A stretch of DNA of 64,000 nucleotides, from NCBI GenBank assembly GCA_002731275.1, contig PCBK01000053.1, positions 36,275-100,274 on the forward strand, read 5' to 3'. Position numbers and translations under genes: made by a program. The notes under the pieces are model-generated. The model was not told the origin of the DNA. It saw nothing but the letters and a program-made list of their open reading frames with translations, and ran no database searches. Shown one piece after another: positions 1 to 59,756 of this stretch. The first letter of the stretch is position 1, and each line of letters starts with the position of its first letter. This DNA is from Deltaproteobacteria bacterium. Lineage in GTDB: Bacteria; Myxococcota_C; UBA6777.

Positions 1-52
1 TTTCACCCCGAACCCCACAATGCTCACGCATTGTCTGCTTTGATGGTAGGAT
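1..52 (+). repeat. Partial copy A of a dispersed structured intergenic repeat (hairpins CAATGC-N4-GCATTG etc.), truncated by window start
   Basis: Near-identical to 2715-2765, 4250-4300 and (diverged) 8670-8730; contains the CCCCACAATGCTCACGCATTGTCTG core. Confidence 0.6.
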
Positions 53-291
53 GTTTTTTGTTGGAGGTGAGTGATGCTCTCGATTTTGAAAAGTGAATGG
101 TGTGAGAAGTGCGGACAAGTCAAGTCGATAGCTCGCCTTTCTAAACCAACCCCGAAGGGGTTCAACCAAGGGGGGAGGCAAGCGAAGCGCGCCAGGGGGA
201 CATTATTTCCCCCGTTAGTCCGTCTTCAAAAAGTCTTCACAAACAAAAAACTCGCTCAAAATCCTCTGAACAAAACGATGACTTTTTTCAT

Positions 292-768
292 GTGATATAT
301 TTGGAGGACAATATTCTGTGGAGATTGTTGAGGAGATGTTTTCAGATGGTGGAAGAGCTCATACCAGACAATATAATCGTTTTGCCAGTTCCGGACTTTG
401 ACTTTCTTGACAATAACCAAGGACGCCGTGTCTGGAAGTTATCTTTTGAAAAGGAAGTCAATGAGGTCGCATTGACTTCTCTGACTCTTATCCTTGATGA
501 ATACACGATTGAAGGAGTCCATTTTCAATTTGCCATCGTAGATCCTCACGTCCTCCATTTAATTGTTTTGTCTGACGTTCACCCTGGAGCTTTATCCGTG
601 ACAGTGTCAACACTAAAAGTCCTTAGCCATGTGAACAAGGTATCACTTAATCTTACTCATATCGAAGATGTGGAGGTTGTATTGTGGGAAGGTCGTTTTG
701 TCGAGCCTCGCGATTTTGTCGAAAGTGATCCATCATCGCTTCATGAACTGCCGAAATACTCAAAGTGA
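292..768 (+). CDS. hypothetical protein (GTG start), AT-rich codon usage
   Basis: ORF track 292..768; no recognisable motif; tightly followed by S1-domain ORF, same strand. Confidence 0.3.
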   Translation: MIYLEDNILWRLLRRCFQMVEELIPDNIIVLPVPDFDFLDNNQGRRVWKLSFEKEVNEVALTSLTLILDEYTIEGVHFQFAIVDPHVLHLIVLSDVHPGALSVTVSTLKVLSHVNKVSLNLTHIEDVEVVLWEGRFVEPRDFVESDPSSLHELPKYSK

Positions 769-786
769 AAGGTTTTGGAGCGCTTG

Positions 787-1335
787 ATGGATAGAGATTG
801 TTTGTTTGAGGTAGTTGAAAACGCAATGTTGCAAGAGTCTTGTATCGAAGTTGAGGTAGAGGAAGTCCATTCATATGGAGCTTGGGTGACTTTTGGCGGA
901 CTGACAGGTTACATCGACTTCGTTGAGGTGAGTTGGGAGCAGATCATCCATCCAGAGGAAGTTTTGAAAGTTGGATGTGCTGAAAAGGTGAGGGTTCTGT
1001 TGTGTTTCAATCCTCCAAAAGAGGATCTCGCAGGAAGAAGAATCTACTTTGTGTGTTCTCCCAAGCAAGCACATCCCGAAGATAATCCTTGGTCTGAAGA
1101 GCAACGTCCTTCGATAGGACAAAGCATGACAGGAAAGATCACGAGTCGAACTGATTATGGAGCTTTTGTGTCATTTGAGAGCGGCCTGGTTGGTTTGCTT
1201 CTTCGTGAAAAGGAACTCCGTCAGAATGATATTGGATCCGAACTCACCGTAAGGGTGTATGAGCTTGATGTTGCGAGAAAGATTTTGTTGCTGGAAGAAG
1301 TTGCATTGGGAGAGGAGATGAATGAGGAGGCTTGA
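787..1335 (+). CDS. small protein with two S1-like RNA-binding domains
   Basis: Two S1-like motifs (YGAWVTFGGLTGYIDFVEVSW... and GKITSRTDYGAFVSFESGLVGLLLREKEL); ATG 787 preceded by GGAG; ORF track gives 775 (TTG). Confidence 0.5.
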   Translation: MDRDCLFEVVENAMLQESCIEVEVEEVHSYGAWVTFGGLTGYIDFVEVSWEQIIHPEEVLKVGCAEKVRVLLCFNPPKEDLAGRRIYFVCSPKQAHPEDNPWSEEQRPSIGQSMTGKITSRTDYGAFVSFESGLVGLLLREKELRQNDIGSELTVRVYELDVARKILLLEEVALGEEMNEEA

Positions 1336-2635
1336 TTTCACGAGCGCTAAAATGCAAGACAAAGAGATGTTTAACTTGGCTCATTCACCATCATCCTCTG
1401 AGGTGACAGAGCTTCTTTTGGCCTGGAATCTCATTGGAAGTCAAGGCGCGATCTCTCTTGCTCAATCCAACTATCTGACTAACCTTACCCACCTCAACTT
1501 GAACAACAACTCCATTGGTGATGAGGGACTTTCTGCAATCTTGGAGGCTTCTTTTTTTCCACAACTCATATCACTGCAGCTCAGAGGAAATAAGCTTACC
1601 GAAGAAGGCGCCTTTGCTCTTGCAAGCACCAAGCGGAACTTACAATTGGCGTTTCTTCGGTTGGATTTCAACAATGTTGGGGATGATGCTCTCATCAAAC
1701 TCGCCCACTCTCCATCTTTTTCTCAACTCAAGCGATTGGGACTCAAGCGTGGTCGTATCTCTTCCCGTTCAATCGATGTGTTGGGGCAGTCTACTTGCAT
1801 ACAGCTCCAAGCCTTAGAGCTGGCTCACAACTCTATCGGTGATGAAGGTGCTTTGGCAATCGCCCAATCTTCTTCTTTTTCTCAACTCAAAACACTCGAT
1901 GCCTTCGGATGTGGGTTCACTGAAGAGGGTGTGAGTGCAATCATCTACTCTCCTTTTCTCTCGGGATTGGAGCGGCTTAACCTCCAAAACAACTCTATCG
2001 GTGATGAAGGTGCCATTGCACTCGCTCGTTCTGTGTATCTTTGCCGACTCAAAGAACTCAATTTGTTTGGTGGCGGCATTTGTGAAAAGGGGATAGAAGC
2101 ACTTGCAAATGCTCCTCATCTCGCAAACTTGAAAACACTGAACTTGAAGTACAATGAAATTGGAAGTGCTGGAGCCATCGCCATCTCGCAAAGTGAATAC
2201 CTCTCAGGACTCGAACATCTTGATCTTGCGAGTAACAATATTGGCGTAGAAGGTGTTCGTGCTGTTACGAGTTCCCCTCATCTTTTGCATCTAAAGCATC
2301 TTTCTTTGGGAAGAAACCAACTTGGTGATGAGGGGATGTCTCTTCTTGCTCAATCCCCAAATCTCTCGGATCTTGTGGTGTTACAAGCCAAAGGAAACCA
2401 ATTGACCTCAAAAGGTGTTGTGGAGTTTGTCTGCTCTGGAAACTGCTGCCACCTCGAATGGATCGATCTCTCGGAGAACAACATTGATGATGAAGGAGCA
2501 ATCGCGATCGCCAATTCATCAACATTGACAAATCTGAAAACGCTCATTCTTTGGGATAACCAAATCACGGCCAAAGGAGTTCATGCCCTCAAGAATTCTT
2601 CAAATCTTTCTTGTCTCGAAGACTTTGGACTGTGA
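1322..2635 (+). CDS. leucine-rich repeat protein, ribonuclease-inhibitor (RNI)-type LRRs
   Basis: ~28-aa repeats LxxLxLxxNxIGDEGaxALAxS repeated >10 times; start overlaps upstream ORF (operon). Confidence 0.7.
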   Translation: MRRLDFTSAKMQDKEMFNLAHSPSSSEVTELLLAWNLIGSQGAISLAQSNYLTNLTHLNLNNNSIGDEGLSAILEASFFPQLISLQLRGNKLTEEGAFALASTKRNLQLAFLRLDFNNVGDDALIKLAHSPSFSQLKRLGLKRGRISSRSIDVLGQSTCIQLQALELAHNSIGDEGALAIAQSSSFSQLKTLDAFGCGFTEEGVSAIIYSPFLSGLERLNLQNNSIGDEGAIALARSVYLCRLKELNLFGGGICEKGIEALANAPHLANLKTLNLKYNEIGSAGAIAISQSEYLSGLEHLDLASNNIGVEGVRAVTSSPHLLHLKHLSLGRNQLGDEGMSLLAQSPNLSDLVVLQAKGNQLTSKGVVEFVCSGNCCHLEWIDLSENNIDDEGAIAIANSSTLTNLKTLILWDNQITAKGVHALKNSSNLSCLEDFGL

Positions 2636-2690
2636 CATTGTTGTGGTCATCCTCTATCATCAATTCGTTTGTGGGGTTCTTTTTCTATGT

Positions 2691-2908
2691 GGGCTGGCAG
2701 CCCACACCCGCTCGGGGTTTCCACCCCGAACCCCACAATGCTCACGCATTGTCTGTTTTGCGCCTTCGGCGCGGGTTCTTTGATGAACATGCTAGGAAAT
2801 TTTTTCAAACAAGCGATTCTACGGAGAGGAAGCACCTTTTAAGTGGTGTTTTTGTTTGAACATATCCAAGCCTGTTCCCTTTTGCAAACATCTCTTTTTA
2901 CCGACCTC
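2691..2908 (+). repeat. Copy B of structured intergenic repeat (composite: core 2691-2788, ~70 bp insertion, tail 2861-2908)
   Basis: Core GGGGTTTCCACCCC / CAATGCTCACGCATTG / GCGCCTTCGGCGC hairpins; tail ATATCCAAGCCYGTTCCCTTTTGCAAACATC matches 4318-4363. Confidence 0.7.
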
Positions 2909-2976
2909 TTTTTTGACAAGATCTTGTGGGCCTGTTCTTTTGTGGCATTCTTGTAGCTTGAAAAGGAGGTGTCCGA

Positions 2977-4116
2977 ATGACCCAAAGCCCCCAAAATGAG
3001 ATTGTTTTCTACAACGAGTTGCTTTCGGAGATCAAGGCACGCATTCAACAGGGGCAGATACGTGCTGTGCTTTCAGCCAATGCAGAGCTGTTGATGACCT
3101 ACTGGGATATCGGCCGGATGCTTCATCTACGCCAACAAGAAGAGGGTTGGGGTGCAGGTGTCATTCCCAAGCTCTCCAAGGATTTACGCAATGATCTTCC
3201 TGAGATGAAAGGATTTTCTGAACGCAATCTTGGGCGAATGGTTCGCTTTTATCGCGAGTACCCAGGACTCTCTGCAATTTTGCCACAGGCTGTGACAAAA
3301 TTAGGAGCAGGCAAAGAAACAGACGCAGAAGAAGAGGTGACAACACCAATATTATCTTCTCCCGACTGGCTGAGGTTGGTGTTTCGTGTGAGCTGGACGC
3401 ACAACATTTTGTTGATTCAGAAGCTCAAGGAGCTTGATCTGCGATGTTGGTACTTGGAGCAGACGATTGCCAATGGTTGGGGGCGTGACACGCTCACAGC
3501 GATGATCAAGAGCAAAGCACACGAACGTCAGGGTAGCGGTGTGAGTAACTTTGATGAGCGTTTACCTTCGCGGCAATCGGAGTTTGCACAACAACTTCTG
3601 AAAGATCCGTACATTTTTGACTTTCTGACATTGGAGGAGCCCTTTCGCGAACAGGAATTGGAAGCGGGTTTGGTCGCACACTTGGAGACATTCCTTCTTG
3701 AGCTTGGTGCGGGCTTTGCGTTTGTAGGACGTCAGTATCATGTGGAGGTTGGGGACAATGACTTCTACATCGACTTGCTCTTTTATCACTTGCGGCTTCG
3801 CTGTTTTGTGGTTGTTGAGTTGAAGAAGGGGGAGTTTAAGCCTGAGTATGCGGGGAAACTGAACTTTTATTGCAACGTGGTGGATGACAAGCTCAAGCAC
3901 GAAACAGATGAGCCAACAATCGGTTTGCTCTTGTGTCAAGGCAAGGACAGGATTCTTGCTGAGTATTCTTTGCGAGGAATCCAGAAGCCTATTGGTATTG
4001 CGGATTACGAATTGACACAGGCGCTGCCTCAAGAACTCAAGTCGAGTTTACCGACAGTTGAAGAAATCGAGGCAGAGTTGGTGGGGGAGCTTGATGGTGA
4101 CGAAGGAACAGAATGA
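2977..4116 (+). CDS. DUF1016 / YhcG-family PD-(D/E)XK nuclease-domain protein
   Basis: N-terminal YWDIGRML...GVIPKLSKDL...KGFSERNLGRMVRFYREYP signature and C-terminal VVELKKGEF (D..ELK) PDDEXK-like motif; RBS AAGGAGG before ATG. Confidence 0.85.
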   Translation: MTQSPQNEIVFYNELLSEIKARIQQGQIRAVLSANAELLMTYWDIGRMLHLRQQEEGWGAGVIPKLSKDLRNDLPEMKGFSERNLGRMVRFYREYPGLSAILPQAVTKLGAGKETDAEEEVTTPILSSPDWLRLVFRVSWTHNILLIQKLKELDLRCWYLEQTIANGWGRDTLTAMIKSKAHERQGSGVSNFDERLPSRQSEFAQQLLKDPYIFDFLTLEEPFREQELEAGLVAHLETFLLELGAGFAFVGRQYHVEVGDNDFYIDLLFYHLRLRCFVVVELKKGEFKPEYAGKLNFYCNVVDDKLKHETDEPTIGLLLCQGKDRILAEYSLRGIQKPIGIADYELTQALPQELKSSLPTVEEIEAELVGELDGDEGTE

Positions 4117-4186
4117 ATAGACTCTATGTGTTTGAGTCCTCTTTGCGAGAACATACTTGGGTATTTGTTTCATCGAGAACGAGGGA

Positions 4187-4241
4187 GGTAGAGCATCAGC
4201 TTCCAAGCTGAGGGTCGCGAGCTCGAATCCCGTTTCCCGCT
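4187..4241 (+). other. tRNA-Trp(CCA)-like 3' fragment (D-stem 3' side, anticodon arm, imperfect T-arm); not a functional tRNA
   Basis: GGTAGAGCA-TCAGC-TTCCAAG-GCTGA anticodon stem-loop with CCA anticodon; no 5' acceptor/D-stem partner upstream; T-arm has a mismatch. Confidence 0.3.
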
Positions 4242-4242
4242 T

Positions 4243-4363
4243 GGGGTTTTCACCCCGTACCCCACAATGCGTTGCATTGTCTGTTTTGCGCCTTCGGCGC
4301 GGGTTCTTTGATGAAGATATCCAAGCCCGTTCCCTTTTGCAAACATCCCTTTTTACCGGCCTC
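4243..4363 (+). repeat. Copy C of structured intergenic repeat (core + tail contiguous)
   Basis: GGGGTTTTCACCCC, CAATGCGTTGCATTG, GCGCCTTCGGCGC hairpins then ATATCCAAGCCCGTTCCCTTTTGCAAACATCC. Confidence 0.7.
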
Positions 4364-4485
4364 ATCAAATCCCTCTAAGGAAACGTTCAGAATTTCCGCT
4401 GAGGAAATTCTCACCAAGAAAACCGAAGGTTTTCAAGGGGGATGCAACGCCCTGCGTTGCAAGGGGGATGGAGTGCCCTGCGTTG

Positions 4486-4956
4486 TTAGGATTTTGGACC
4501 CCAGATGTCAAATCCGCTGACACATCCACCTGAGATGTTGAACAAGATCCCGTGTTGGTCATAGCTCCACCATCCGGATGATGCGTACTTTTTGTCGCTA
4601 GGATATTGAGAAGAAGGTTCGCCATAGGCTGATTCCAACTGTTTGTGCGTCGCACCTTCCCGGATGCCTCGGTCGGTGACTGCTGGGATCCTTCCTTCTA
4701 GAAAAATGATTCCTAACACCTCATCCTGGAACACAAGCTTGAAGCCGTCGTAAATGTGGTAGATATCGTCGGAGTATTTAGTGATCTTTGAAGGTTTGCC
4801 AAAGATGGCGTGCGCCTGTTCGATGCTGCTGCCAAGAGGCAAACCCTCGAAGCCATGGCCTGAGATAGACAGCTCTTCTTTGTTGAGATACCGCTGGCGT
4901 AACTGCTCCGAAGTGCTCTCGACCATTCGAGCGAGAGAGGGATCGTCTTTTGACAC
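4486..4956 (-). CDS. hypothetical protein, immediately downstream of macro-domain gene
   Basis: ORF track; 59 bp after macro gene on same strand; no recognisable motif. Confidence 0.4.
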   Translation of the reverse strand: MSKDDPSLARMVESTSEQLRQRYLNKEELSISGHGFEGLPLGSSIEQAHAIFGKPSKITKYSDDIYHIYDGFKLVFQDEVLGIIFLEGRIPAVTDRGIREGATHKQLESAYGEPSSQYPSDKKYASSGWWSYDQHGILFNISGGCVSGFDIWGPKS

Positions 4957-5015
4957 AGCTTCCTCCTGTACCGTGAGAGTGAGTTGATGTAACGTATATG
5001 CTCTGGGTTAAGGGG

Positions 5016-5618
5016 TCAAGACGACTTTTGTTGAAGAGCCTGGAGCCTTATATTCTCAGATACATTTGCCTCAAGGAATGCTCGGCGCATCTGCCTAGCC
5101 GCTTCTTTGTATGGAATACCGCCTGTTCCTGTGCCCAATCCCGGACACCCGATACCTGTGATCACATGTGCGTTGGTTTGATTGAACTGATAGACTGCCT
5201 TCAACATCGCCTTCATCGCGAGGTAAGCGTTTTGTGTTTCCTTCACTGGACCAGGAATTCTCATCGTCGGAGCCACCACCAAGTACTCAATCCTCTCACT
5301 GTACGTTTCGATGACAAAAGCCGAACCAACAGGTAACTCTCCTCCGTGATCTTGCTTGATTTGTTGTTTTACCCGCTCTTCAATTTGTTGCCCAAACGAG
5401 TAAACATACACTTGATCGATCCCACCATCCATCCATCCATACGAATTGGCTGGGCTTACAACCGCGTTGATGTTCTCCAATTGCATGATGTCTTTGTCTG
5501 AAATCTCGACGCCTTTGACCTCTGAAAAGGCTTCTTTGAATGCTTTGTATAGACCAAATTGTCGAGCAGTCAGAATGAGTGATGGGTGTGATATTGTGTC
5601 CATGTGTTCCCCTGACAA
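5016..5618 (-). CDS. macro-domain protein (ADP-ribose binding/processing family)
   Basis: INAVVSPANSYGWMDGGID and ITGIGCPGLGTGTGGIP motifs matching macro-domain N..N-GG-D and GIG-C-G glycine-rich loops. Confidence 0.65.
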   Translation of the reverse strand: MSGEHMDTISHPSLILTARQFGLYKAFKEAFSEVKGVEISDKDIMQLENINAVVSPANSYGWMDGGIDQVYVYSFGQQIEERVKQQIKQDHGGELPVGSAFVIETYSERIEYLVVAPTMRIPGPVKETQNAYLAMKAMLKAVYQFNQTNAHVITGIGCPGLGTGTGGIPYKEAARQMRRAFLEANVSENIRLQALQQKSS

Positions 5619-6220
5619 AAAATGCGCCTACCACAATTCCATTGCGAACTCCTTGGTGAGAAATGTTATCGCTTCTGCTTGCGATGCGCAAATTCACAAA
5701 TTCGCAAAAGAGAATATGAACTCCGATTGACGGGAAAATGAGAAAGCTTATTCTGGAAATGAGTGCTCACGTTCCCGTTTTTTGCGCCTGAAATGCACAA
5801 GGCATCATCCAAAACCCTCGTCGAATTGGGTTTTGTGTGTTGGGAGAGCTATTCTTGGAAGATGGTTTGGCCTACCCCTTTTTGATAAAGTCGCATGGAG
5901 AGAGCTGTCAGTGAAATAAGACGGAAGGGTTTGTATGCCTTTCGATACTGCACAAATCAAGAAGCCCTTTCTGGGATATACGCGAATGGAGGGGATTCGT
6001 CTCGTTTGGGGGGAGTGATATGTTTTGTATGCTGAAACCAGGACCAGGGTCCCTAAAAGAGAGGAGGCCACCCCCGCGAGATGCAAAGGTGGCCTTTGGG
6101 AGATGTTGTGGTATGTTGAATGGGGATATGGACCGAGTCCAAGAATATAGCTCGATCTCAGGGGGATAGACCGTTTTTTTCAGTCCTACAGCGCCAGGCC
6201 ATACCTGGAACAGGAGATGA

Positions 6221-6406
6221 TCATTTCTGTTTCAGCTTTTTGCTGACACTCTCAGAGGCCTCACCAAACTTCTCTTGGATGATACCTTTCAATTTATCGA
6301 CCGAACCTTCGGCCTTTTTGAAGTCGTCTTCTGTCAATTCAGCCCAGGCTTTCTTTGCACGACCTTTGATCTGTTCCCATTTTCCAACAAGTTTGTCTTC
6401 GTTCAT
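6221..6406 (-). CDS. csbD: CsbD-family general stress protein
   Basis: MNEDKLVGKWEQIKGRAKKAWAELTEDDF... is the canonical CsbD repeat signature; 61 aa. Confidence 0.85.
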   Translation of the reverse strand: MNEDKLVGKWEQIKGRAKKAWAELTEDDFKKAEGSVDKLKGIIQEKFGEASESVSKKLKQK

Positions 6407-6641
6407 TACAAGCTCCTTTGTTTCAAATATTCATTCTAGCGAATCAGTTTCGCCCCTCACATATTTCAAGACGCATGCCAACTTTTTATCTCATTGTTTT
6501 TATATCAATTTTTTGTGTCGCATTCACAATGTTGAATTTTTTTTGAAACAAATCACAGCGCAAACATCTTTCCTGTACAAAGCGCAAATGGACATTGTGC
6601 TCTTTACGAATGCGATGTTGTGAAATGGAGAAGAACCTGTC

Positions 6642-7358
6642 ATGTTGTCTCACAATCAACCTCTTTCAATGGAGTGGTATGCTGGACGTATCACCTCAAA
6701 GCAGAATGCATCTGGCGACTCTGCGACGCCGTGTGAGAGGACTGCGCAGACTGTGAAGAGAGAAGAAGAACGCACACGAGACAAGGAGTGGATTCGCAAG
6801 ATCAAGGCAGGCGAACGCGAGGCTTTTCAGCAACTGTATCAGACGTATTCGCCACAACTGTACCAGCGTATCCTGCGATTGACGGGCCACACACAACAGG
6901 CCGAAGACTGTCTTCAACAAGTCTTTTTACGTGTCATTGAACACATTCATCATTATCGCGGAGAGGGTCACCTCTATGGATGGTTGCTTAAGATCGCGAC
7001 CAATGAAGTCCTTCAGTTGTTTCGCAAACAAGGCCGCTATCGGACATTCCAGGCCGCGTTTTTTGTCTTCATGCAACCAGAAGGTGAGACAACCCCTCTA
7101 CCCGAACAAATCTTTCTCGAAGAAGAGCGCCGTGTGATCGTTCACAAAGCTTTACAACGTCTCGACCATCGCAAACGCATCGTCGTCTTGCTGTGTGACC
7201 TCGAAGGTGAAAAGCTCGAAGACGTCGCCGTACAGCTCTCTATCCCTAAAGGGACCGTCGCATCTCGATTGCACCACGCACGTCGAGACCTCCGAAAGTA
7301 CATCGCATTTGAATGCAAACAATCGGGGTTCTCCGTGGAGGATTGGTATCATGCGTAA
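6642..7358 (+). CDS. ECF-type RNA polymerase sigma-70 factor
   Basis: Region 2 (EAFQQLYQTYSPQLYQRILRLTGHTQQAEDCLQQVFLRVIEHIHHY) and region 4 HTH (EKLEDVAVQLSIPKGTVASRLHHARRDLRK); true start may be an internal ATG. Confidence 0.85.
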   Translation: MLSHNQPLSMEWYAGRITSKQNASGDSATPCERTAQTVKREEERTRDKEWIRKIKAGEREAFQQLYQTYSPQLYQRILRLTGHTQQAEDCLQQVFLRVIEHIHHYRGEGHLYGWLLKIATNEVLQLFRKQGRYRTFQAAFFVFMQPEGETTPLPEQIFLEEERRVIVHKALQRLDHRKRIVVLLCDLEGEKLEDVAVQLSIPKGTVASRLHHARRDLRKYIAFECKQSGFSVEDWYHA

Positions 7359-8316
7359 ATATACACCTACACCTTTCGACAAAGAGACCCAAGACTTTCT
7401 CAAACAACCACATCCTACGTGGCATACTCTTCCTGAAGAGGTCCATGAGCGTCTACTACGTGTCGAACAAGCAAGTCTCAATGCCTTCGACCAACGTGAA
7501 CAACAAAGGCTCCCTTCACGACAAACACAGTCTTTGCGTCAGATCTTTTCGATACGTCGAGGCTTTGTGTATGCCAGCTGTATGGCACTTATGCTCTTGT
7601 TCTTATCGTGGTGGCCTACATGGCCTCCATACACACAACCTGTCATCGTGCGAGCGCCATCTACACCGAAGAAACTCGTGCAAAAGACCATCCAGACAGT
7701 TCGTCGTGTCGAAGGGCTACCACCACGGAAGATCATTGGACCTCGTCTGATAGAAGCACCTGTCGTGCGGACGTGCTCCGAACATGCGTTGGCTGTGATT
7801 GCACCTTCGAGAGCGCGGGATTATTGGCAGGTCCAAGAGTATGGCGATCAGTCGTTGAGTGTTCATTGTAAGGATGCAGCGTCGATGTGTGGTGTGCAAG
7901 AGGAGCATAAACAGATGCATGTCGAGATCCTCGCACACAGAAGAGATGCGGTGCGATTGTCATGTGCAAAAGGGATCTCGATTACTTCGAGAAAGTCGTC
8001 TTTTTCTATCGAACATCGTGACGGTATATACACATTGGTCGCACATCATGGCCCGTTGGCACTCCACCAAAGTGGGCGTTCATCATCACATAGAGTGAAG
8101 GACGCCGTTGAGCTGAGGCAGTCGAGTGCCGGCTGGTTGGTTTCGTTCCCACAAGAACGCATACAAACGCAGCCAAAAGAACATCTGGTCGCGTTTTGTG
8201 GACAGGGTGAGGAGCTGGATCAAGTCGTCGATGCTTCGTTCCGTGGAGGAAGAGGCGTTCACACAAGCAGTCGCTGGTTGGGACGCCAACTCCATATTGT
8301 TGTCCCACACACATAG
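7351..8316 (+). CDS. putative membrane-anchored anti-sigma factor (overlaps sigma stop by ATGCGTAA)
   Basis: Start ATG 7351 overlaps sigma stop 7356-7358; one TM helix (FVYASCMALMLLFLSWWP); classic sigma/anti-sigma arrangement. Confidence 0.55.
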   Translation: MRKYTPTPFDKETQDFLKQPHPTWHTLPEEVHERLLRVEQASLNAFDQREQQRLPSRQTQSLRQIFSIRRGFVYASCMALMLLFLSWWPTWPPYTQPVIVRAPSTPKKLVQKTIQTVRRVEGLPPRKIIGPRLIEAPVVRTCSEHALAVIAPSRARDYWQVQEYGDQSLSVHCKDAASMCGVQEEHKQMHVEILAHRRDAVRLSCAKGISITSRKSSFSIEHRDGIYTLVAHHGPLALHQSGRSSSHRVKDAVELRQSSAGWLVSFPQERIQTQPKEHLVAFCGQGEELDQVVDASFRGGRGVHTSSRWLGRQLHIVVPHT

Positions 8317-8359
8317 ACCGTCGCTCTGCTTACCACTGGCCTTCCATATATACGGACAA

Positions 8360-8640
8360 GTTTCCACTTGCAGGGAGCAGGACGAGTTTCCACTCGCAGG
8401 GAGCAGGGCGAGTTGCCACTCGCAGGGAGCAGGGCGAGTTTCCACTCGCAGGGAGCAGGGCGAGTTTCCACTCGCAGGGAGCAGGGCGAGTTGCCACTCG
8501 CCCTTACGGCTGCCGCGCTCTGCTTGGCATTGGCCTCGCACATACGGACAAGTTGGCACTTGCAGGGAGCAGGGCGAGTTGCCACTCGCCCTTACGACTG
8601 CCGCGCTCTGCTTGGCACTGGCTGCCGCGCTCTGCTTGGC
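8360..8640. repeat. non-coding tandem minisatellite, 26-bp unit GTTTCCACTCGCAGGGAGCAGGGCGA x5-6 plus degenerate longer units
   Basis: Directly abutting units without spacers; downstream of anti-sigma stop. Confidence 0.8.
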
Positions 8641-8651
8641 ATAGTGGGCTC

Positions 8652-8741
8652 GCTGCCCACACCCGCCTGGGGTTTGTTCAACCCCAGACCCCATGATGCT
8701 TACGCATCATTTATGTTGCGCCTTCGGCGCTTATTTTTTCC
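8652..8741 (+). repeat. Copy D (diverged) of structured intergenic repeat; ends in terminator-like GCGCCTTCGGCGC + TTATTTTTTCC
   Basis: Hairpin 2 carries compensatory changes (ATGATGC-TTAC-GCATCAT vs CAATGC-TCAC-GCATTG) preserving pairing; hairpin 3 identical. Confidence 0.65.
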
Positions 8742-8763
8742 ATATTTGAAGGAGTGAAAGAAG

Positions 8764-9699
8764 ATGAGAACATCTGTACGTCGAGTTGTATTTGGGTGTC
8801 TTGGATGCATTGGAATGCTTGGTTTGTTGTTGGCTCTCCCGAAGCCGGCGGAGTCTCATTCACGTCAGGAGTTGACGTTGATGTTGCAAAAGATGAAGAA
8901 AAAGCAGACGCAGCTTGCGCAGCGGATCGCAGGATTGACGAGTAAGCTGTCTTCTCTTCGGAAGGAGGGCAAGCTGATGGCATGGGAGTTGTCGCTGCTC
9001 AAGAGAGAGCTTCGGAATGCGGACAATGTGGTCGAGAAGGTAAAGGCACCTGGATGTGGTGGTGTTGGACGTTGTCGTCGATGCAAGTCGCAACCTAAGA
9101 AGCAGGTGAAGGCGCTTCGTTGTGGTCGTGGTGGTGGACATTGTCGCAAAGGAAAGGCGCTCTCAAAAGAGCTCGCGCAGAAGAAGATGCCTGTGAAGTC
9201 TTTGACAGGACCGACATGGGGACCTGCCTCGGCGAAGGTGACGATCGCCGCATTCTCTGACTTTCAATGCCCCTTCTGTGCGCGTGGTGCGTCGATTATG
9301 CGCAAGGTGAAGCAGGCATTTGGAGACAAAGTGAGGATCGTCTTCAAGCATCTGCCTTTGGCTTTTCATAAGCAGGCCTATATTGCAGCGCAAGCGTCGA
9401 TGGAGGCACAGCGTCAAGGAAAGTTTTGGCCCTTCCATGACAAGATCTTCGCCAATATCAGAAGCGTCAACAAGGCGCAATTGCTCAAGTGGGCTGGTGA
9501 GCTGAAGATGGACGTGAAGGCGATGAAACACGCACTTGATACGAAGAAGTACAAGGCGGTCGTGGACGCGGACCTTGCGCTCGCAAAAAAGTGGCACGTT
9601 CGTGGGACACCGACATTCTTTGTCAATGGCGAACGTGTGACTGGCGCACATCCCTTCAAGGTCTTTGCTTCCAAAATTAACAAACTTCTCGGTCAATAG
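8764..9699 (+). CDS. DsbA-family thiol:disulfide oxidoreductase with N-terminal signal peptide and Lys/Cys-rich coiled-coil extension
   Basis: CPFC active-site motif (FSDFQCPFCARG), thioredoxin-fold C-terminal half (VRGTPTFFVNGERV). Confidence 0.8.
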   Translation: MRTSVRRVVFGCLGCIGMLGLLLALPKPAESHSRQELTLMLQKMKKKQTQLAQRIAGLTSKLSSLRKEGKLMAWELSLLKRELRNADNVVEKVKAPGCGGVGRCRRCKSQPKKQVKALRCGRGGGHCRKGKALSKELAQKKMPVKSLTGPTWGPASAKVTIAAFSDFQCPFCARGASIMRKVKQAFGDKVRIVFKHLPLAFHKQAYIAAQASMEAQRQGKFWPFHDKIFANIRSVNKAQLLKWAGELKMDVKAMKHALDTKKYKAVVDADLALAKKWHVRGTPTFFVNGERVTGAHPFKVFASKINKLLGQ

Positions 9700-13394: not shown

Positions 13395-15941
13395 ATGGGA
13401 AAACAAGAGAAGCGCGATCTGGTATTGGCACCTGGTACATACGCTTATATGCAAGACGAAACAACCGGTGCGATCAAGACCTTTGTCGGTCCTTGTGTGA
13501 TCAACCAGACCGCGCAAGAAGTGCCCGTTCAGTACATTGCAAAGGACGGACTCTTCAAACGTTGCAGTCGCCTCGAAGAGGCCGCCTGTAAATCCCCCAT
13601 CGCTGTCGAAGGGTTCTATCTTGTACTCAAGAATCCGGTGTTACAGGATGAACTTCACCCCGATGTCGGTAGTGCAGGAAAAATCTCTCCTACACTGCAA
13701 GTTGGGCGGAAGATCAATATCCCTGGTCCCTGTATGTTCGCGTTGTGGCCTGGGCAAGACGCACAAGTGGTGCGTGGTCATAACCTTCGTTCCAATCAAT
13801 ACCTGCTCGTAAGGGTATATAACGAAGAGGAAGCGCGAAGTAACTGGGAAAAAGCTGTGATGAAGCCAGCCTCTGGCCCCGAAAGCGAAGCGGGCGAGAC
13901 GATGGCGACCGCACCTGCACCCGTGGACCTCACTGTGGGAAAAGAGCTCGTTATTAAAGGCACAGAGGTCTCTTTTTATATCCCACCCACAGGTATGAGC
14001 GTGATTCCCGAAGGTGTAGACTCCAGTCGAAAACCAATATATGTTCGCGACGCCCTGACACTCGAACGGTTGGAGTACTGTATTCTCGTCGATGAAGACG
14101 GAAACAAGCGATACGAACGAGGACCACAAGTTGTTTTCCCCAAACCTACAGAGACTTTTGTCATCCGCAAAGGATTTCAAAAGTTCCGTGCCATTGAGTT
14201 AAATGAAAATCAGGGCCTGCATATCAAGGTCATCGCACCTTACTTCGATGAGACCACTCAGACAGCGTACAAAGAGGGTGATGAATTGTTCGTCACAGGA
14301 AAAGAGACCGCGATCTATTTTCCACGCGAAGAACACTCTCTGATCTCCTACGACGGGAAATCAAAACATTTCGCCACAGCCATTCTCGCTGGAGAAGCAC
14401 GCTATATGATGGATCGGATTACCGGTGAGGTCGAGACCGTTGAGGGACCTGCGATGTTGTTGCCTGATCCAAGACACCAAGTGATCGTGAGACGTGTCCT
14501 CTCGGACAAACAAGTCACACTCTGGTATCCCGATAATGACGAAGCGTTCGAATACAACAAACATCTTCGTCAGATGCTTGGACATACCCCCACGACACGC
14601 TCTGGTGTCATCAGCGAAGGCGACTATACACGCGGTCTCCGCAGACAGAAAAAAAAGAAGTCCTCCCAGGGACAGCCTGCCGGTCAAATGGAACACTCTA
14701 TCATCGGTGAACAAGAGTTGATCGCCGACGAGTTTTCACGTGCGTCATCCTATACACAACCTCGTACTGTGATCCTGGATAATAAATTCCAGGGCGTCCC
14801 AGACATCGAAGTATGGACCGGATATGCGGTCCAGGTGATCGCCAAAGATGGGACGAGACGTGTCGTCGAAGGGCCCGCGCAGCTGTTGTTAGCTTATAAC
14901 GAAACCCTGGAAGCGCTACGGTTCTCCACTGGGTGTCCAAAAACACCCAACTCTCTCAAGGAGGCCGTCTTTTTACGTACCAAGAGCAACAAGGTGCGAG
15001 ACTGTGTCGAAGTCCGCACGCTTGACCACGTCCCCGTCGCCATCGAGCTGGAGTATAGCCTCCACTTTGAAGGCGACTCCACACGCTGGTTCTCCATCGA
15101 TAACCCCATCCAGCACCTGTGTGACCACACCAGGACGTTGCTCAAACGCGCCGTCAAAGAGGTCTCTGTCGAGGCATTCAGCGCACAATCCACCGGGCTT
15201 TTACAGGACATCCTCCTCGGCACACTCGACGACAAACAACGTCGCGCTGGCCTGCGCTTCGAACAAAATGGCATGTTTGTCAGTGAAGTCGATGTCCTCT
15301 CCGTCCGTATCCTCGACGAGAGCATCCAAAAAGTGCTGTCCCAATTCCAAAAGAAGACCGCACGCTACAGTATCGAGCAACTCGTCGCACAACGCGAACT
15401 CGAAAACACACGCGCACTTGAGCTCATCGAACAAGACAGCGCTGCCGCCAGACAAGAGACACAGCTTCGTATCCTCGCGCTCGAAGAGCAGCTGCGACAG
15501 CATCGACAAGAGGTCGCACTTCACGAGGTCCAACGTGCGCAAACACTCGAACAGGCCAAACAGGAGCAAAAACGCGAAGAGGCGCTGCTCAAACAAAAGG
15601 TCACCGAGATCGAGAACCAAACCGAACAGCTTCTGCACGCTGCGTTGATGGAACAAAAGGCCGAAGAGTTGCGCCTGGAGAAGGAAAAACTCGCGGCACA
15701 GACAGCGTCCATTGTCGAACAATCCAACGCCATCAGTCCACACCTCACGATGGCTCTCGAACGCCTCGCCGACGAAAAACTCCTGAGCGCGATGGCCAAC
15801 GGATTTGGTGAGTTTGCCGCCGCAAAAGGTGTCGGCTTGCTCGAAACAGCCAAACAATTCTTCGACTTCCTGCCTGAGCACAAGCTCCAAATCCTCCACC
15901 ACCAACACACCCCTCAACATCACGAAGAGAGCGAAGGGTAA
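13395..15941 (+). CDS. major vault protein (MVP) homolog
   Basis: 848 aa; N-terminal repeats resembling MVP repeat domains (EYCILVDEDGNKRYERGPQVVFPKPTETF; GDELFVTGKETAIYFPREEHSLI), shoulder-like segment, ~180-aa C-terminal coiled coil like the vault cap-helix. Confidence 0.7.
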   Translation: MGKQEKRDLVLAPGTYAYMQDETTGAIKTFVGPCVINQTAQEVPVQYIAKDGLFKRCSRLEEAACKSPIAVEGFYLVLKNPVLQDELHPDVGSAGKISPTLQVGRKINIPGPCMFALWPGQDAQVVRGHNLRSNQYLLVRVYNEEEARSNWEKAVMKPASGPESEAGETMATAPAPVDLTVGKELVIKGTEVSFYIPPTGMSVIPEGVDSSRKPIYVRDALTLERLEYCILVDEDGNKRYERGPQVVFPKPTETFVIRKGFQKFRAIELNENQGLHIKVIAPYFDETTQTAYKEGDELFVTGKETAIYFPREEHSLISYDGKSKHFATAILAGEARYMMDRITGEVETVEGPAMLLPDPRHQVIVRRVLSDKQVTLWYPDNDEAFEYNKHLRQMLGHTPTTRSGVISEGDYTRGLRRQKKKKSSQGQPAGQMEHSIIGEQELIADEFSRASSYTQPRTVILDNKFQGVPDIEVWTGYAVQVIAKDGTRRVVEGPAQLLLAYNETLEALRFSTGCPKTPNSLKEAVFLRTKSNKVRDCVEVRTLDHVPVAIELEYSLHFEGDSTRWFSIDNPIQHLCDHTRTLLKRAVKEVSVEAFSAQSTGLLQDILLGTLDDKQRRAGLRFEQNGMFVSEVDVLSVRILDESIQKVLSQFQKKTARYSIEQLVAQRELENTRALELIEQDSAAARQETQLRILALEEQLRQHRQEVALHEVQRAQTLEQAKQEQKREEALLKQKVTEIENQTEQLLHAALMEQKAEELRLEKEKLAAQTASIVEQSNAISPHLTMALERLADEKLLSAMANGFGEFAAAKGVGLLETAKQFFDFLPEHKLQILHHQHTPQHHEESEG

Positions 15942-21860: not shown

Positions 21861-24743
21861 ATGCAGAAGAGAGTGATGTGTTTGGTGTGGATGGTGTTGT
21901 TGTTGACGATGTCGATCTTATCGGCATGTGGTCCGACGACATCTGGTCGTGAACAATCTTCCGAGTCCCACCAAGAGGCACACAAAGAGCTGAGCAAAGA
22001 AGCGGCTCCAGTGGACGCTGGAGAGGGGAGTGGGGGAGCGAAAGAGACGACGACACCTGATGCGCAGGGGCAGGAGGGCACGACACCAGAACAAGGTTGT
22101 CCAAACGCCTGTACGAATGAAGGTGATGAGCGATGTGACGGTCAAAAACGTCTGCTGTGTGTGAAGAAGCAAGGTTGCCTTACGTGGGAAGCCATCCAGG
22201 AGTGTCCAGACGGCACGACATGTCAGCCCAACGCTTGTGTCTCGACATGTAAAGGCGAGTGTTCGGAAGGGGATCGGATCTGTCAATCGGATCGTCCTAT
22301 GCTTTGTGTTGTCGTCGATGGTTGCCCTGTCTGGAAGGAAGAGAAGGCATGTGCACAAGGCGAAGTCTGCTCTGGTGGTCTCTGTACACAACAGTGTCAA
22401 TCGGAGTGTAGTCTTGGTGATATGCGATGTTTTGGACGCAACTCGTTATCTCATTGTGTGCGTGCACAGAACGGATGTTTGCAGTGGGGGACGCCAAAAA
22501 CCTGTAGTGATGGACACATCTGTGATGGGAATAAGTGTGTGCCTTCCTGTACGGATGTGTGTGTGCCTGGAGATAAGCAATGTACACAAGGCGGCGTGAG
22601 TCTTTGTGTGCGTGGGCAAGATGGTTGCGCTGTGTGGGGGAAGGCTTCGAGCTGTCCCACAGGTCAAACCTGTTCAGGTGGTGCCTGTACACAGAGCTGT
22701 CAGGATGTGTGTAAGGCGAATGAGACTCGCTGTTCTGGCCAAGCTGTCCAGACTTGTTTGCGACAGAGCAATGGTTGTTTGGATTGGGGACTTCCTGCCG
22801 CGTGTCCAACACAACGGACTTGTCAGGCTGGAAAGTGTGTGCTCTCATGTACCTCTACGTGTAAGAGTGGAGCTGTCCGATGTCTGGGGGATTTGATCCA
22901 GTCATGTGGCCTTCAAGCGAGTGGTTGTCTTGATTGGGCTGGTGCCAAAGCCTGCCCTGCTGGTGAGGCGTGTGTGAGCGGAGCCTGTAAGAAGGTCTGT
23001 CAACAAGTCTGCCAACAAGGTGATGTCCGTTGTGATGCCGTTGGTGTCAGCCGCTGCGTAAAAGATAGCGGTGGATGCTGGACGTGGGGAGCGAGCTCCG
23101 CGTGCGCACAAGGGAAGGTCTGTAAAGCAGGCGCTTGTGTTGACAAGACTGGCGCAGGGTATGGGGCAACGTGTACTGGGAACAGCGACTGTAAGAGCGG
23201 TTTTTGTTTGAAGACCTCGACGTCTTCGTTTTGTTCAAAGCTTTGCAGCTCCGACACGGATTGTGGCACAGGGAAAGTATGTCAGTCCACATCGATTCAA
23301 AACAAACTCCAACGTCTCTGTGTTGTCCCCGGTAGTATCGAAGCTTGTGCTGTGAACGGTGATTGTTCCGCGTACACCAGATGTGTCAACAAAACATGCG
23401 CTGTCAGTTGTTCTGAAAACCGCGACTGTTGGTCGTCTTACTACTGTGACAATGGGACATGCAAAGGGCTTGGTGCCAGCACGTGCTCCTCCAACAAGGA
23501 ATGTCCCGGTGGGTACTCCTGTAAGTCCGGAAAGTGCAAAACTTCGTGCTATTACGCCTCGGACTGTCAACCGACCTTTCATTGTGACAGCAGCAAACGG
23601 CAGTGTTATCCCTTACCTCCGGGACAATGCTACTACGATGTAAATTGCCCTAACAACTTCGCATGTAAATCCAAGACGTGTTTGACGAGCTGTCAGGAGA
23701 ACAGAGATTGCCACCAAGGTTACTATTGCAACGCTGGTGCTTGCAAAAAGTTGAGCGCTGATACGTGTACCTCCAACAGTGATTGTCCTGGTGGATACTC
23801 CTGTAAATCTGGTAAGTGCAAAACTTCGTGTTATTATGCTTCGGACTGTCAGCCCAAACACCACTGCGACAGTAGCCGAAGACAGTGTTATCCATTGAAG
23901 CCGGGACAATGTTACTATGATGTCAATTGCCCTAACAACTTCGCGTGCAAGTCCAATGTCTGCCTGACGAGTTGTAAAGAGAACAGAGATTGCCACCAGG
24001 GGTACTACTGTGGCGCTGGTACCTGCAAAAAGTTGAGCGCTGATACATGCACCTCCAACAGTGATTGTCCCGGTGGGTACTCCTGTAAGTCCGGAAAGTG
24101 CAAGACCTCATGTTACTACGCTTCGGACTGCCAACCGACCTTTCATTGCAGCAGCAGCCGAAGACAGTGTTATCCCTTGAATCCAGGGCAATGCTACTAC
24201 GATGTGAATTGTCCCAACAACTTCGCATGTAAATCCAACGTATGTCTGACGAGTTGCAAAGAGAACAGGGATTGTTACCAGGGTTACTATTGCAGCGCTG
24301 GTGCCTGCAAAAAGTTGAGCGCCGATGTGTGTACATCCAACAGTGATTGTCCCGGTGGGTATTCTTGTAAGTCCGGAAAGTGCAAAACATCGTGCTACTA
24401 TGTCTCCGATTGCCAGCCGACCTTCCATTGCAGCAGCAGCCGAAGACAGTGTTATCCCTTGAATCCAGGGCAATGTTATTACGACGCGAATTGCCCCAAC
24501 AACTTCGCGTGTAAGTCCAATGTCTGCCTGACGAGTTGCAAAGAGAACAGGGATTGCCACCAGGGTTACTATTGTGGCGCGGGGACCTGCAAAAAGTTGA
24601 GCGCTGATGTGTGTACGTCCAGCAGTGATTGTCCCGGTGGATATGCCTGCAAGTCCGGAAAGTGCAAGACTTCGTGCTACTATGTCTCCGATTGTGAGTC
24701 ACCAGCCAAGTGCGACGGGAGTCGCCGTCAATGCTATCAGTGA
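21861..24743 (+). CDS. lipoprotein with Cys-rich repeats: ~12 short C-x-G-x-C modules then five near-identical ~97-aa Cys-rich modules
   Basis: Lipoprotein signal MQKRVMCLVWMVLLLTMSILSAC; DNA-level ~291-bp tandem repeats 23400-24700. Confidence 0.75.
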   Translation: MQKRVMCLVWMVLLLTMSILSACGPTTSGREQSSESHQEAHKELSKEAAPVDAGEGSGGAKETTTPDAQGQEGTTPEQGCPNACTNEGDERCDGQKRLLCVKKQGCLTWEAIQECPDGTTCQPNACVSTCKGECSEGDRICQSDRPMLCVVVDGCPVWKEEKACAQGEVCSGGLCTQQCQSECSLGDMRCFGRNSLSHCVRAQNGCLQWGTPKTCSDGHICDGNKCVPSCTDVCVPGDKQCTQGGVSLCVRGQDGCAVWGKASSCPTGQTCSGGACTQSCQDVCKANETRCSGQAVQTCLRQSNGCLDWGLPAACPTQRTCQAGKCVLSCTSTCKSGAVRCLGDLIQSCGLQASGCLDWAGAKACPAGEACVSGACKKVCQQVCQQGDVRCDAVGVSRCVKDSGGCWTWGASSACAQGKVCKAGACVDKTGAGYGATCTGNSDCKSGFCLKTSTSSFCSKLCSSDTDCGTGKVCQSTSIQNKLQRLCVVPGSIEACAVNGDCSAYTRCVNKTCAVSCSENRDCWSSYYCDNGTCKGLGASTCSSNKECPGGYSCKSGKCKTSCYYASDCQPTFHCDSSKRQCYPLPPGQCYYDVNCPNNFACKSKTCLTSCQENRDCHQGYYCNAGACKKLSADTCTSNSDCPGGYSCKSGKCKTSCYYASDCQPKHHCDSSRRQCYPLKPGQCYYDVNCPNNFACKSNVCLTSCKENRDCHQGYYCGAGTCKKLSADTCTSNSDCPGGYSCKSGKCKTSCYYASDCQPTFHCSSSRRQCYPLNPGQCYYDVNCPNNFACKSNVCLTSCKENRDCYQGYYCSAGACKKLSADVCTSNSDCPGGYSCKSGKCKTSCYYVSDCQPTFHCSSSRRQCYPLNPGQCYYDANCPNNFACKSNVCLTSCKENRDCHQGYYCGAGTCKKLSADVCTSSSDCPGGYACKSGKCKTSCYYVSDCESPAKCDGSRRQCYQ

Positions 24744-41944: not shown

Positions 41945-42829
41945 TCAGTGTGATGTGTATTCTTCGAGGGTTGGGACGTTGGACAGGTGTTGTTGAAGTG
42001 TGAGGGCGACCTCGCGTGCGTCTTCAGCAGTGAATTGTTCGCCCCGTGGGCTCCCACCGATGCTCTCGCGTCCTCCCCATCCAGGCCCTAATTTTTGAAA
42101 GAAGTTGTGTAGGCCACCTTGGCCGAGCAGGGATTCGGCCGTTTTGAGATCTTTGCAGCCGATGGTGATGGAGTTGTGTTTGGTGCTGTAAGAGACGATG
42201 AGAGGGGCGCGACGGTACCATCTATCAAATCCCCATACGCGAGCCTCGACGTACATCACATGGGGCGGAAAGACCTCTTGGGTCGATTCTTCGGCCATCT
42301 TGATCCGGCGTCTCTCCGAGCGCCTGATCTTGCCACGTTTGCCCGAAGGGAGTCCAAGCTCTAGCAGGCGGGCCATCGCCTCGACTGCACGCACAAAGGA
42401 TTGTGCGTTGCGCGTTTGTTGGGGGAGCTGCTGAAAGTACAACAGCTCTTCGCCGTGTTGTTCTTCGAGCAGGTCGATGTGGATGGGGTCGAGGTCCTGT
42501 CTGTTTACGAGTTCCGGAAAGCTCGAAGGGATCATCTCTTTGGGCAGCCACCCTGTCAGACAGAGGATGGCGAGCGTTGCGTCGGCGTCGGCCGTACCTG
42601 TGACGACAAAGCGTGGGTCTTCTCGTCGGCTGCCGTAATGATCGCGATATGCCCGGATCGCGACGCCTTCTCGCCAGGATTCCTGACCGTGGTGATCCAT
42701 CGCGAGAGGTCCGAGCACAGAACCTCTGCCAAAGGCACACTCGATGGGTTCATATCCCTGTGTGGTGAGTGTTTCGGCCTCTTCGAAGCTCGTGGTGTGT
42801 CGAATGTCGAGGGGGATAGATGTTGTCAT
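41945..42829 (-). CDS. hypothetical protein, start ATG overlaps kinase-FGE stop (ATGA)
   Basis: Trimmed ORF 41945..43048 to Met whose ATG overlaps the upstream stop. Confidence 0.4.
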   Translation of the reverse strand: MTTSIPLDIRHTTSFEEAETLTTQGYEPIECAFGRGSVLGPLAMDHHGQESWREGVAIRAYRDHYGSRREDPRFVVTGTADADATLAILCLTGWLPKEMIPSSFPELVNRQDLDPIHIDLLEEQHGEELLYFQQLPQQTRNAQSFVRAVEAMARLLELGLPSGKRGKIRRSERRRIKMAEESTQEVFPPHVMYVEARVWGFDRWYRRAPLIVSYSTKHNSITIGCKDLKTAESLLGQGGLHNFFQKLGPGWGGRESIGGSPRGEQFTAEDAREVALTLQQHLSNVPTLEEYTSH

Positions 42830-45234: not shown

Positions 45235-45431
45235 CGTTCGCCTGGGTACGCTTCTCTTGTTGGGCGGAAGGCCTTCCGCAATAGACGCTCCAAGATTACA
45301 CCACAATAGACGTATTTGGCTAGGTTTGATTCATAGTGGTGTGGGTTTATCCTTATATAGGAAGGACATACCCGCGATACTTTCTTTGCTTTGGGGCGCC
45401 GTCGTATACGATATGTGTTCTTTGCTATGGG

Positions 45432-59382: not shown

Positions 59383-59756
59383 GATCTGCCTCTTGTGTCG
59401 TGAGGGTGGTATGTTTTGTTGTCTGGAGGTATCCTCAGACATTCACACCAAAGCACGCAAGTGCGCGCTCGTGTGAAACATGAGGGTATCATACAACATG
59501 TTGAACGGAATGAATATATTTTGGCTGTATGTGTCGCTCTATGAGACCTATGAGGGTGTTTCTTGTCATCTCTAGTGGGGAGGGTTGAGGAAGAGAATGG
59601 TTGACAGATCGTCAAGCTCTTGCCATTCTCTTGGCGATTTGCGTTGTGGGATCGACGTACAGTCCTGTCTTTGAGGTGCGTGGAGGTGCCCATTTGCTCG
59701 GGATATTCGTCGGTTTTGTGACATTGTGGAGACACATTTGTTTGAGGAGAAGATCG

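Follow-up and report, generated by a model that had tools for sequence, protein, structure and literature searches.

We analyzed a 64,000-nucleotide (nt) stretch of contig PCBK01000053.1 (assembly GCA_002731275.1, Deltaproteobacteria bacterium; positions 36,275 to 100,274 of the forward strand), referred to here as the window, and found that its first 9 kb carry four copies of a new and previously undescribed repeat family, one that belongs to a known bacterial kind. The four stretches are probably solo copies of a non-coding mosaic repeat, a DNA-level element of the kind represented by repetitive extragenic palindromic (REP) sequences, bacterial interspersed mosaic elements (BIMEs), and miniature inverted-repeat transposable elements (MITEs). 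A DNA-level mosaic repeat fits better than a dedicated RNA because the copies are randomly oriented, form inverted pairs, show balanced G·U and A·C mismatches, and in most cases have no T-run. An earlier reading of the DNA without database searches (the sequence-only reading) had proposed terminator-containing REP-like elements or a small RNA family. The REP-like label pointed to the right neighborhood, as this is a dispersed, structured, extragenic family whose pairing is kept through double changes.

The repeat unit is about 92 nt long and consists of four different GC-rich hairpins (hp0 to hp3) whose order is fixed, with conserved single-stranded linkers between them (Table 1). The last hairpin, hp3, is a stem closing a TTC or TGC loop. 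Direct reading of positions 1-9200 and three independent searches placed copies A to D on the plus strand at 1-60, 2688-2778, 4241-4306, and 8643-8736, and the expected number of chance matches in the motif searches was zero. A covariance model built from 43 family members also recovered the four same-orientation copies and, with filters off, detected no further copies in the rest of the window.

The sequence-only reading had described three consecutive hairpins common to all copies. These hairpins are present, but a fourth, hp0, precedes them in copies B and D, and copy A is without hp3. The third hairpin had been drawn as a UUCG tetraloop, GCGCC-TTCG-GCGC, the arms of which are not complementary; in its true form, GCGCC-TTC-GGCGC, five base pairs close a tri- or pentaloop. 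The tails of copies B and C (2779-2908 and 4307-4363) had been counted as parts of the element. In the sequences compared, they are instead a duplication that is private to this locus and outside the family: positions 2857-2908 are 92% identical to 4312-4363 and do not occur elsewhere in the sequence searched. We also considered an enclosing helix between the ACCCCA linker and a TGGGG past hp3. This helix was rejected, as it can be drawn in some copies only (including GAACCC/GGGTTC in B and C) and is not conserved.

Copy A is cut by the start of the window. The same contig taken from a public assembly (locus L064) restores the lost part, and the full copy, including hp0 and hp1, lies at L064 6994-7084 with a score of 84 bits; its hp0 (L064 6994-7012) is outside the window. 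A fifth plus-strand copy is located 4 kb further upstream on L064. Copy A lies 80 nt downstream of an open reading frame (ORF) with an FGE-sulfatase domain, copy B starts 52 nt past the stop codon of an LRR ORF (2635), and copy C is downstream of a YhcG/DUF1016 ORF (stop codon at 4116), with a convergent ORF ahead of it. The copies are therefore downstream of ORFs at this locus, as had been noted, but not directly after stop codons: the gaps measure 52-125 nt for copies A to C and 327 nt for copy D, where the gap is occupied by other repeat modules.

Table 1. Consensus of the repeat unit and positions of the repeat copies and associated features in the window
Feature	Position	Strand	Description
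hp0, family consensus			tGTGGGY-TTGCC-RCCCACa
Linker hp0-hp1			CCCGC
hp1			YYGGGG, 6-9 nt loop, CCCCRR
Linker hp1-hp2			ACCCCA
hp2			CRATGC-TNAC-GCATYG
Linker hp2-hp3			TYTGTKTT
hp3, variants			GCGCC-TTC-GGCGC, GCGCTC-TTC-GAGCGC, CCGAC-TKC-GTCGG, CCGCC-TGC-GGCGG, ACGCC-TKC-GGCGT
Copy A	1-60	+	cut by window start; 21.8 bits (12-60); T6 run 54-59; hp3 absent
Copy A, parts		+	hp1 3' arm 6-11; linker ACCCC 12-16; hp2 ACAATGC-TCAC-GCATTGT 17-34
Copy B	2688-2787	+	complete; 101.1 bits (2688-2778)
Copy B, parts		+	hp0 2688-2706; linker CCCGC; hp1 2712-2729; linker ACCCC; hp2 2735-2752
Copy B, hp3	2760-2772	+	GCGCC-TTC-GGCGC, then GGGTTCTTTGATGAA
Extension of copy B, locus-private	2788-2908	+	~70-nt insert and 52-nt tail (2857-2908)
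Degenerate tRNA-Gly(UCC)-like fragment	4195-4241	+	anticodon arm to 3' acceptor end
Copy C	4241-4363	+	without hp0; private tail included; 53.1 bits (4216-4306)
Copy C, parts		+	hp1 4241-4258 (TTGGGG/CCCCGT; one wobble, one mismatch); hp2 4264-4280, 3-nt loop
Copy C, hp3	4288-4300	+	then GGGTTCTTTGATGAA, then private tail to 4363
Accessory modules joined to copy D	8354-8642	+	
26-nt tandem hairpin units (GGGCGAGTTKCCACTCGC...)	8359-8501; 8573-8590	+	5.5 units; one more unit
20-nt CTGCCGCGCTCTGCTTGGCA modules	8510-8529; 8598-8617; 8622-8641	+	three modules
Copy D	8643-8739	+	complete; 97.4 bits (8643-8736)
Copy D, parts		+	hp0 8644-8660; hp1 CTGGGG-loop-CCCCAG 8667-8687; hp2 ATGATGC-TTAC-GCATCAT 8693-8710
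Copy D, hp3	8718-8730	+	then TTATTTTTT; canonical intrinsic terminator

A pattern scan of metagenome contigs identified 61 loci with the family, all from marine assemblies (MDTC, MDTD, MDSW, CEUF, and CEUG); the contig of the window itself overlaps with one locus, L032. Across the 539 kb of these loci, the covariance model recorded 115 hits, which reduce to about 93 distinct copies, a count that is not a genomic density because the loci were picked for containing the motif. The pattern scan of GTDB representative genomes yielded only two chance hits, and viral contigs, plasmids, and phages yielded no match. A search of Rfam, which the sequence-only reading had proposed, matched no family in the window at gathering thresholds. 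At permissive E-values, the window and four repeat-rich loci produced only chance-level matches, such as Acido-Lenti-1 with 17.9 bits against a threshold of 37. Proteins from the window were found in more than 110 sample blocks, indicating that the organism is widespread. The nearest named homologs of its DsbA-like protein come from metagenome-assembled genomes labeled Deltaproteobacteria, Myxococcaceae, and Polyangiaceae, and the contigs with the closest DsbA homologs (57-62% identity, including GCA_002720785.1) carry no copy. The family is probably lineage-specific, residing in an uncultured marine Myxococcota-like bacterium.

The hairpins are preserved in the metagenome copies. Among 62 copies selected with the search pattern, 92.4% of cells in hp0 to hp2 were paired, compared with 35-45% when the partners were slid, and cells in which both partners had changed numbered 86, compared with 25.7 in shuffles. 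Because neither arm of hp2 nor any part of the 5' arm of hp1 was constrained in the search, the pairing result is not circular. In a non-redundant set selected with the covariance model, the alternative pairs in hp1 were CG 53 and UA 32, and UA 66 and CG 19. The corresponding counts were GC 69 and AU 19, and GC 73 and AU 15 in hp2 (one unpaired cell each), and GC 51 and AU 12, and CG 46 and UA 22 in hp0. Stem variants of three hairpins were seen in most of the possible combinations; therefore, the compensation does not reflect a single split between two subfamilies. The compensatory changes noticed within the window were also borne out. Copies A to C have ACAATGC/GCATTGT in hp2 where copy D has ATGATGC/GCATCAT, and copies A and B have TCGGGG/CCCCGA in hp1 where copy D has CTGGGG/CCCCAG.

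The sequence-only reading took this pattern as the signature of selection on RNA structure. As a property of the family, that claim is not supported, given the random orientation, the balance of G·U and A·C, the folding of both strands, the inverted pairs, the few T-tracts, and the lack of an Rfam match. Selection is also not needed to produce perfectly complementary arms, since template switching within quasi-palindromes can generate them. All four hairpins form on either strand of the complete copies B and D, with RNA folding z-scores of -4.66 (plus) and -5.99 (minus) for copy B and -5.87 (plus) and -6.40 (minus) for copy D. G·U and A·C mismatches occurred 16 and 14 times in hp0, once and twice in hp1, and three times each in hp2.

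To classify positions, we called genes by hexamer log-odds, with long ORFs of the same sequences as the training set. Among the de-duplicated hits, the solo copies located in co-directional spacers showed no strand preference relative to transcription, with 11 sense and 11 antisense. The genes that flank several of the antisense copies have Pfam domains on the called strand. A further 11 hits lay in convergent spacers and 4 in divergent spacers, such that copies are less frequent between divergently transcribed genes. Only 2 of 97 were inside a gene, and 48 were too near a locus edge to be classified. Ten copies belonging to close pairs in co-directional spacers are additional to the solo counts. 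The same-orientation, after-ORF arrangement noted for the window copies holds for this locus only. A T-tract follows hp3 in few copies.

A strong, conserved fold with covariation favors small RNA genes, and an orientation independent of neighboring genes would be compatible with such genes having their own promoters. We nevertheless regard independently transcribed small RNA genes as highly improbable. The copies share no conserved promoter-like module, and promoter-like sites numbered 7 against 8.3 expected, the sole one at a copy being 28 nt upstream of copy B. Most copies are without a terminator, G·U and A·C are balanced, truncated and mosaic copies are common in the family, and there is no Rfam relative. 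The small RNA proposal is therefore not supported as a family property. A candidate sigma-54 promoter in the upstream module (TGGCA...TTGC) was rejected by inspection, as its GG-to-GC spacing is 12 nt and 10 nt is required.

Pairs of copies at short range provide further evidence for a DNA-level element. Every one of the pairs, of which there are at least 10, consists of a plus copy followed by a minus copy, with hp0 facing outward. These inverted pairs form composites of 190-640 bp that start with TGTGGG and end with CCCACA. Their arms, about 90 nt each, belong to different subfamilies and are separated by spacers of 110-640 nt. One class of about 460 bp has a conserved interior of about 280 nt. 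Composites of about 460-640 bp were located at L021 875-1333, L039 962-1426, L003 29-526 and 2193-2710, L017 10505-11142, and L059 4147-4605; the interior of the L017 composite is enlarged by seven 26-nt units. The recurrent composites have no Rfam match and no obvious ORF.

Two sets of observations weigh against a DNA-level element. The first set concerns RNA. All five copies at this locus are in the sense orientation downstream of ORFs, 52-330 nt past the stop codons, and hp3 contains 19 G·U cells and 0 A·C cells, although its alignment is noisy, with about 5-6 distinct sequences. The skew in hp3 hints at a constraint at the RNA level on this hairpin. Both observations favor a cis-acting RNA element of the 3' untranslated region, in which selection would keep the hairpin array in mRNA as a terminator or 3' exonuclease barrier, with its spread being secondary. 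The hp3 of copy D, followed by TTATTTTTT, agrees with this explanation, as do the flagging of copies B and C as terminator-like and the rarity of the family in divergent spacers, which hold only promoters. Under the DNA-level explanation as well, the window copies would lie sense in 3' untranslated regions and would fold there if transcribed. Copy D's hairpin and T-run would end transcription ahead of the DsbA-like gene, the ORF of which starts at 8764, 25 nt past the terminator; the predicted terminators of copies B and C are weaker. The terminator proposal of the sequence-only reading is therefore upheld by copy D and, weakly, by copies B and C; most family members are without a T-tract. As an account of the family, a 3' untranslated region element seems unlikely. 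Of the solo copies in co-directional spacers, half run antisense to both neighbors, hp0 to hp2 tolerate G·U and A·C alike, most copies have no U-tract, and an RNA role gives no obvious reason for the obligate inverted pairs or the 5' accessory modules.

The second set concerns mobility. No transposase, integrase, or RAYT (REP-associated tyrosine transposase) was found near any copy; a tblastn search with E. coli RayT over about 600 kb gave no match (best E-value, 0.35). The genes bracketed by copies are ordinary, encoding pentapeptide, hexapeptide-transferase, SDR, DUF2834, and SnoaL proteins according to Pfam. No target-site duplication was found at the flanks of 12 composites, and an all-against-all BLAST of flanks found no pair of empty and filled orthologous sites. 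Homologous loci were 100% identical, and therefore we can only infer mobility. The loci come from a few co-assemblies, are possibly from a single population, and were selected by motif. No transposase was among the top 25 families listed for 150 neighboring proteins (Pfam and PHROGs), a listing that is not decisive.

The family resembles several known systems without matching any of them. REP, BIME, and REPIN elements of Gammaproteobacteria are mobilized by RAYT (Y1/HUH) transposases (Nunvar 2010, PMC2817692; Bertels & Rainey 2011, PMC3116915). Like REPs and BIMEs, the repeats described here are high-copy, extragenic, GC-rich palindromes with complementary stem changes, they form mosaics with other short motifs, and they are frequently arranged as inverted doublets and rarer in divergent spacers. 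The hairpin hp0 (tGTGGGCTTGCCGCCCACa) opens with a GT(A/G)G-type head and is close to published REPs, e.g., that of H. influenzae (GTAGGGTGGGCTTcAGCCCACC). In contrast to a REP, which is one palindrome of 20-40 nt, the unit here comprises about 92 nt, four distinct hairpins, and conserved linkers. Moreover, 71 of 72 hp0 hairpins were within full units and only 1 of 72 was outside, so hp0 is not found alone. In REPINs, the inverted doublet is what replicates; the close pairs here are all inverted with hp0 outward, but they have long spacers and arms of differing subfamilies, and most copies are solo. REPIN-RAYT systems also have a single-copy RAYT gene that the repeats flank. The absence of a RAYT in the tblastn search over about 600 kb and the Myxococcota-like host are further differences.

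MITEs and modular repeats such as BOX, ERIC, and Correia elements have been reviewed (Delihas 2011, PMC3184786). Our composites share with them a length of 190-640 bp, long imperfect terminal inverted repeats, an intergenic location, and strong folding. Pneumococcal BOX elements have the modular structure boxA-boxB(n)-boxC, and the conserved interior of the ~460-bp class and the tandem run of seven 26-nt internal modules in L017 are similar in kind. Unlike MITEs, the family shows no target-site duplication and no parent insertion sequence, and terminal inverted repeats occur in composites only; like most copies, the four in the window are solo arms. Rho-independent terminators are matched by copy D, in which a 5-bp GC stem precedes a T-run, and less well by copies B and C. 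However, a T-tract is missing in most members, and half of the copies have an antisense orientation relative to their flanking genes.

An integron attC site is a single long palindrome, bipartite and imperfect, that has a GTTRRRY core; such sites follow cassette ORFs in uniform orientation with intI nearby. We rejected this candidate: the family has four separate local hairpins, both orientations, inverted pairs, and, by inspection, no conserved GTTRRRY. No integrase was present among the neighbors shown.

For a DNA-level mosaic repeat, we propose that a putative trans-acting enzyme, or recombination, would read the folded hairpins and linkers, resulting in spread or reshuffling. The stems would be held complementary by this reading requirement, by palindrome-correcting template switching, or by both. 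A bolder proposal, which we consider unlikely, is that a new class of non-autonomous element uses the 92-nt four-hairpin module, with its near-invariant linkers, as its recognition end. A putative non-RAYT enzyme of marine Myxococcota would read this module in the form of folded single-stranded DNA, and the element may have arisen from the 3' end of a tRNA-Gly gene; alternatively, hp3 and the linkers could be a genuine RNA module that works in both orientations. Such an enzyme would not be a classical RAYT because the unit is far larger than a REP and its two ends are differentiated.

The unit is often extended on its 5' side by accessory modules of 20 and 26 nt. In the loci checked (e.g., L026 and L064), the 20-nt CTGCCGCGCTCTGCTTGGCA module is immediately 5' of hp0, and the 26-nt units upstream of copy D are the same as those within the L017 composite. 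We also observed partial repeats with a 19-nt period (TGTGGGTTTGCC-TTTTGTA), in one to three units just outside hp0, at L005 5796-5835, L003 527-586, and window 2668-2687. They duplicate the 5' half of hp0 and may be half-sites or slippage products at the end of the element.

In copy C, the place of hp0 is taken by a degenerate fragment resembling tRNA-Gly(UCC), the CCCGCT end of which coincides with the linker of the element. Its local alignment score was 54, compared with 18 ± 3.5 in shuffles (maximum 29). Its anticodon loop has lost one base and its T-stem is broken, and neither ARAGORN nor Rfam called the fragment.

This fragment raises the possibility that the repeats are att-like recombination sites derived from the 3' end of a tRNA-Gly, which would mark successive insertions of small blocks of accessory genes. 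By inspection, hp0 and its linker form a 5-bp stem, a 7-nt loop, and a 6-nt tail, as do a T-arm and acceptor strand. Copies B and C are direct repeats that bracket the YhcG/DUF1016 gene. A perfect 46-nt direct repeat (CAAAGTGAAAGGTTTTGGAGCGCTTGATGGATAGAGATTGTTTGTT), at L064 6929-6974 and window 761-806, brackets copy A and two small ORFs; it spans a stop codon and the start of the S1-domain ORF and looks like the scar of an inserted block. In addition, a variant contig from a second assembly (L071/L075; ERZ17097417 NODE_906873) matches the window exactly from the MVP-like gene through the DsbA-like gene up to a DUF7738 gene and diverges 20-65 nt from copy C (window ~4382-4430, L071/L075 vs L070/L074) into unrelated large genes. 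It lacks the YhcG, LRR, and S1 genes and copies B and C, and it retains copy D; its available sequence contains none of the genes around copy A.

We consider an att-like origin very unlikely. None of the other ~90 copies adjoins a tRNA, both orientations and inverted pairs are found throughout, no integrase was seen, the hp0 loop does not have the T-loop consensus, and the fragment escaped both ARAGORN and Rfam. ARAGORN made four calls on 60 loci (tRNA-Leu in three and one doubtful call in L019), all at least 250 nt from copies. A tRNA-gene att site as such was rejected, as only copy C adjoins the tRNA-Gly-like fragment and no copy has a tRNA call beside it or an integrase in view. The repeats, taken as DNA-level elements, probably also serve as recombination substrates, because copies A to C sit in a low-GC segment, the part with copies B and C is missing from the variant contig, copy A lies at one end of the block bounded by the 46-nt repeat, copies B and C bracket YhcG, and the variant contig diverges beside copy C. 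A further contig stops at copy A, as would be expected if the assembly broke at the repeat.

The GC content is 45-48% in the first 8 kb of the window and 49-58% (mostly 52-55%) beyond. Other features of the window are recorded here as separate observations. An 848-amino-acid ORF at 13395-15941 (plus strand) encodes Major Vault Protein shoulder and repeat domains (MVP_shoulder, E = 2.6e-20), which are unusual in a bacterium. Large ORFs contain in-frame tandem repeats at 23439-24700 and 57572-59286; one set consists of 282-nt cysteine-rich units, and the other consists of about 16 units of 105-114 nt that are rich in Asp and Cys codons, in a minus-strand gene at 55648-59442. A Ser/Thr kinase is fused to an FGE-sulfatase-type domain at 42826-45306 (minus strand), and a stand-alone FGE-sulfatase-domain ORF lies at L064 5970-6914, just upstream of copy A. 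Diversity-generating retroelements often target FGE-sulfatase-type domains. Among the domains examined there was no reverse transcriptase, and a reading of the hairpins as part of such a retroelement was rejected on architecture and orientation.

Collectively, our results describe a clean case in which the covariation of a repeat mimics the signature of a functional RNA. With this family, a well-defined mosaic repeat of several hairpins becomes known from a phylum and habitat (marine Myxococcota-like bacteria, uncultured and widespread) for which our literature search found none described. Contig breaks and the edge of an assembly-variable segment fall at copies of the repeat, and knowledge of the family therefore helps to assemble and interpret these genomes. 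A mobilizing enzyme, if found, could extend the REP/RAYT paradigm beyond single palindromes.

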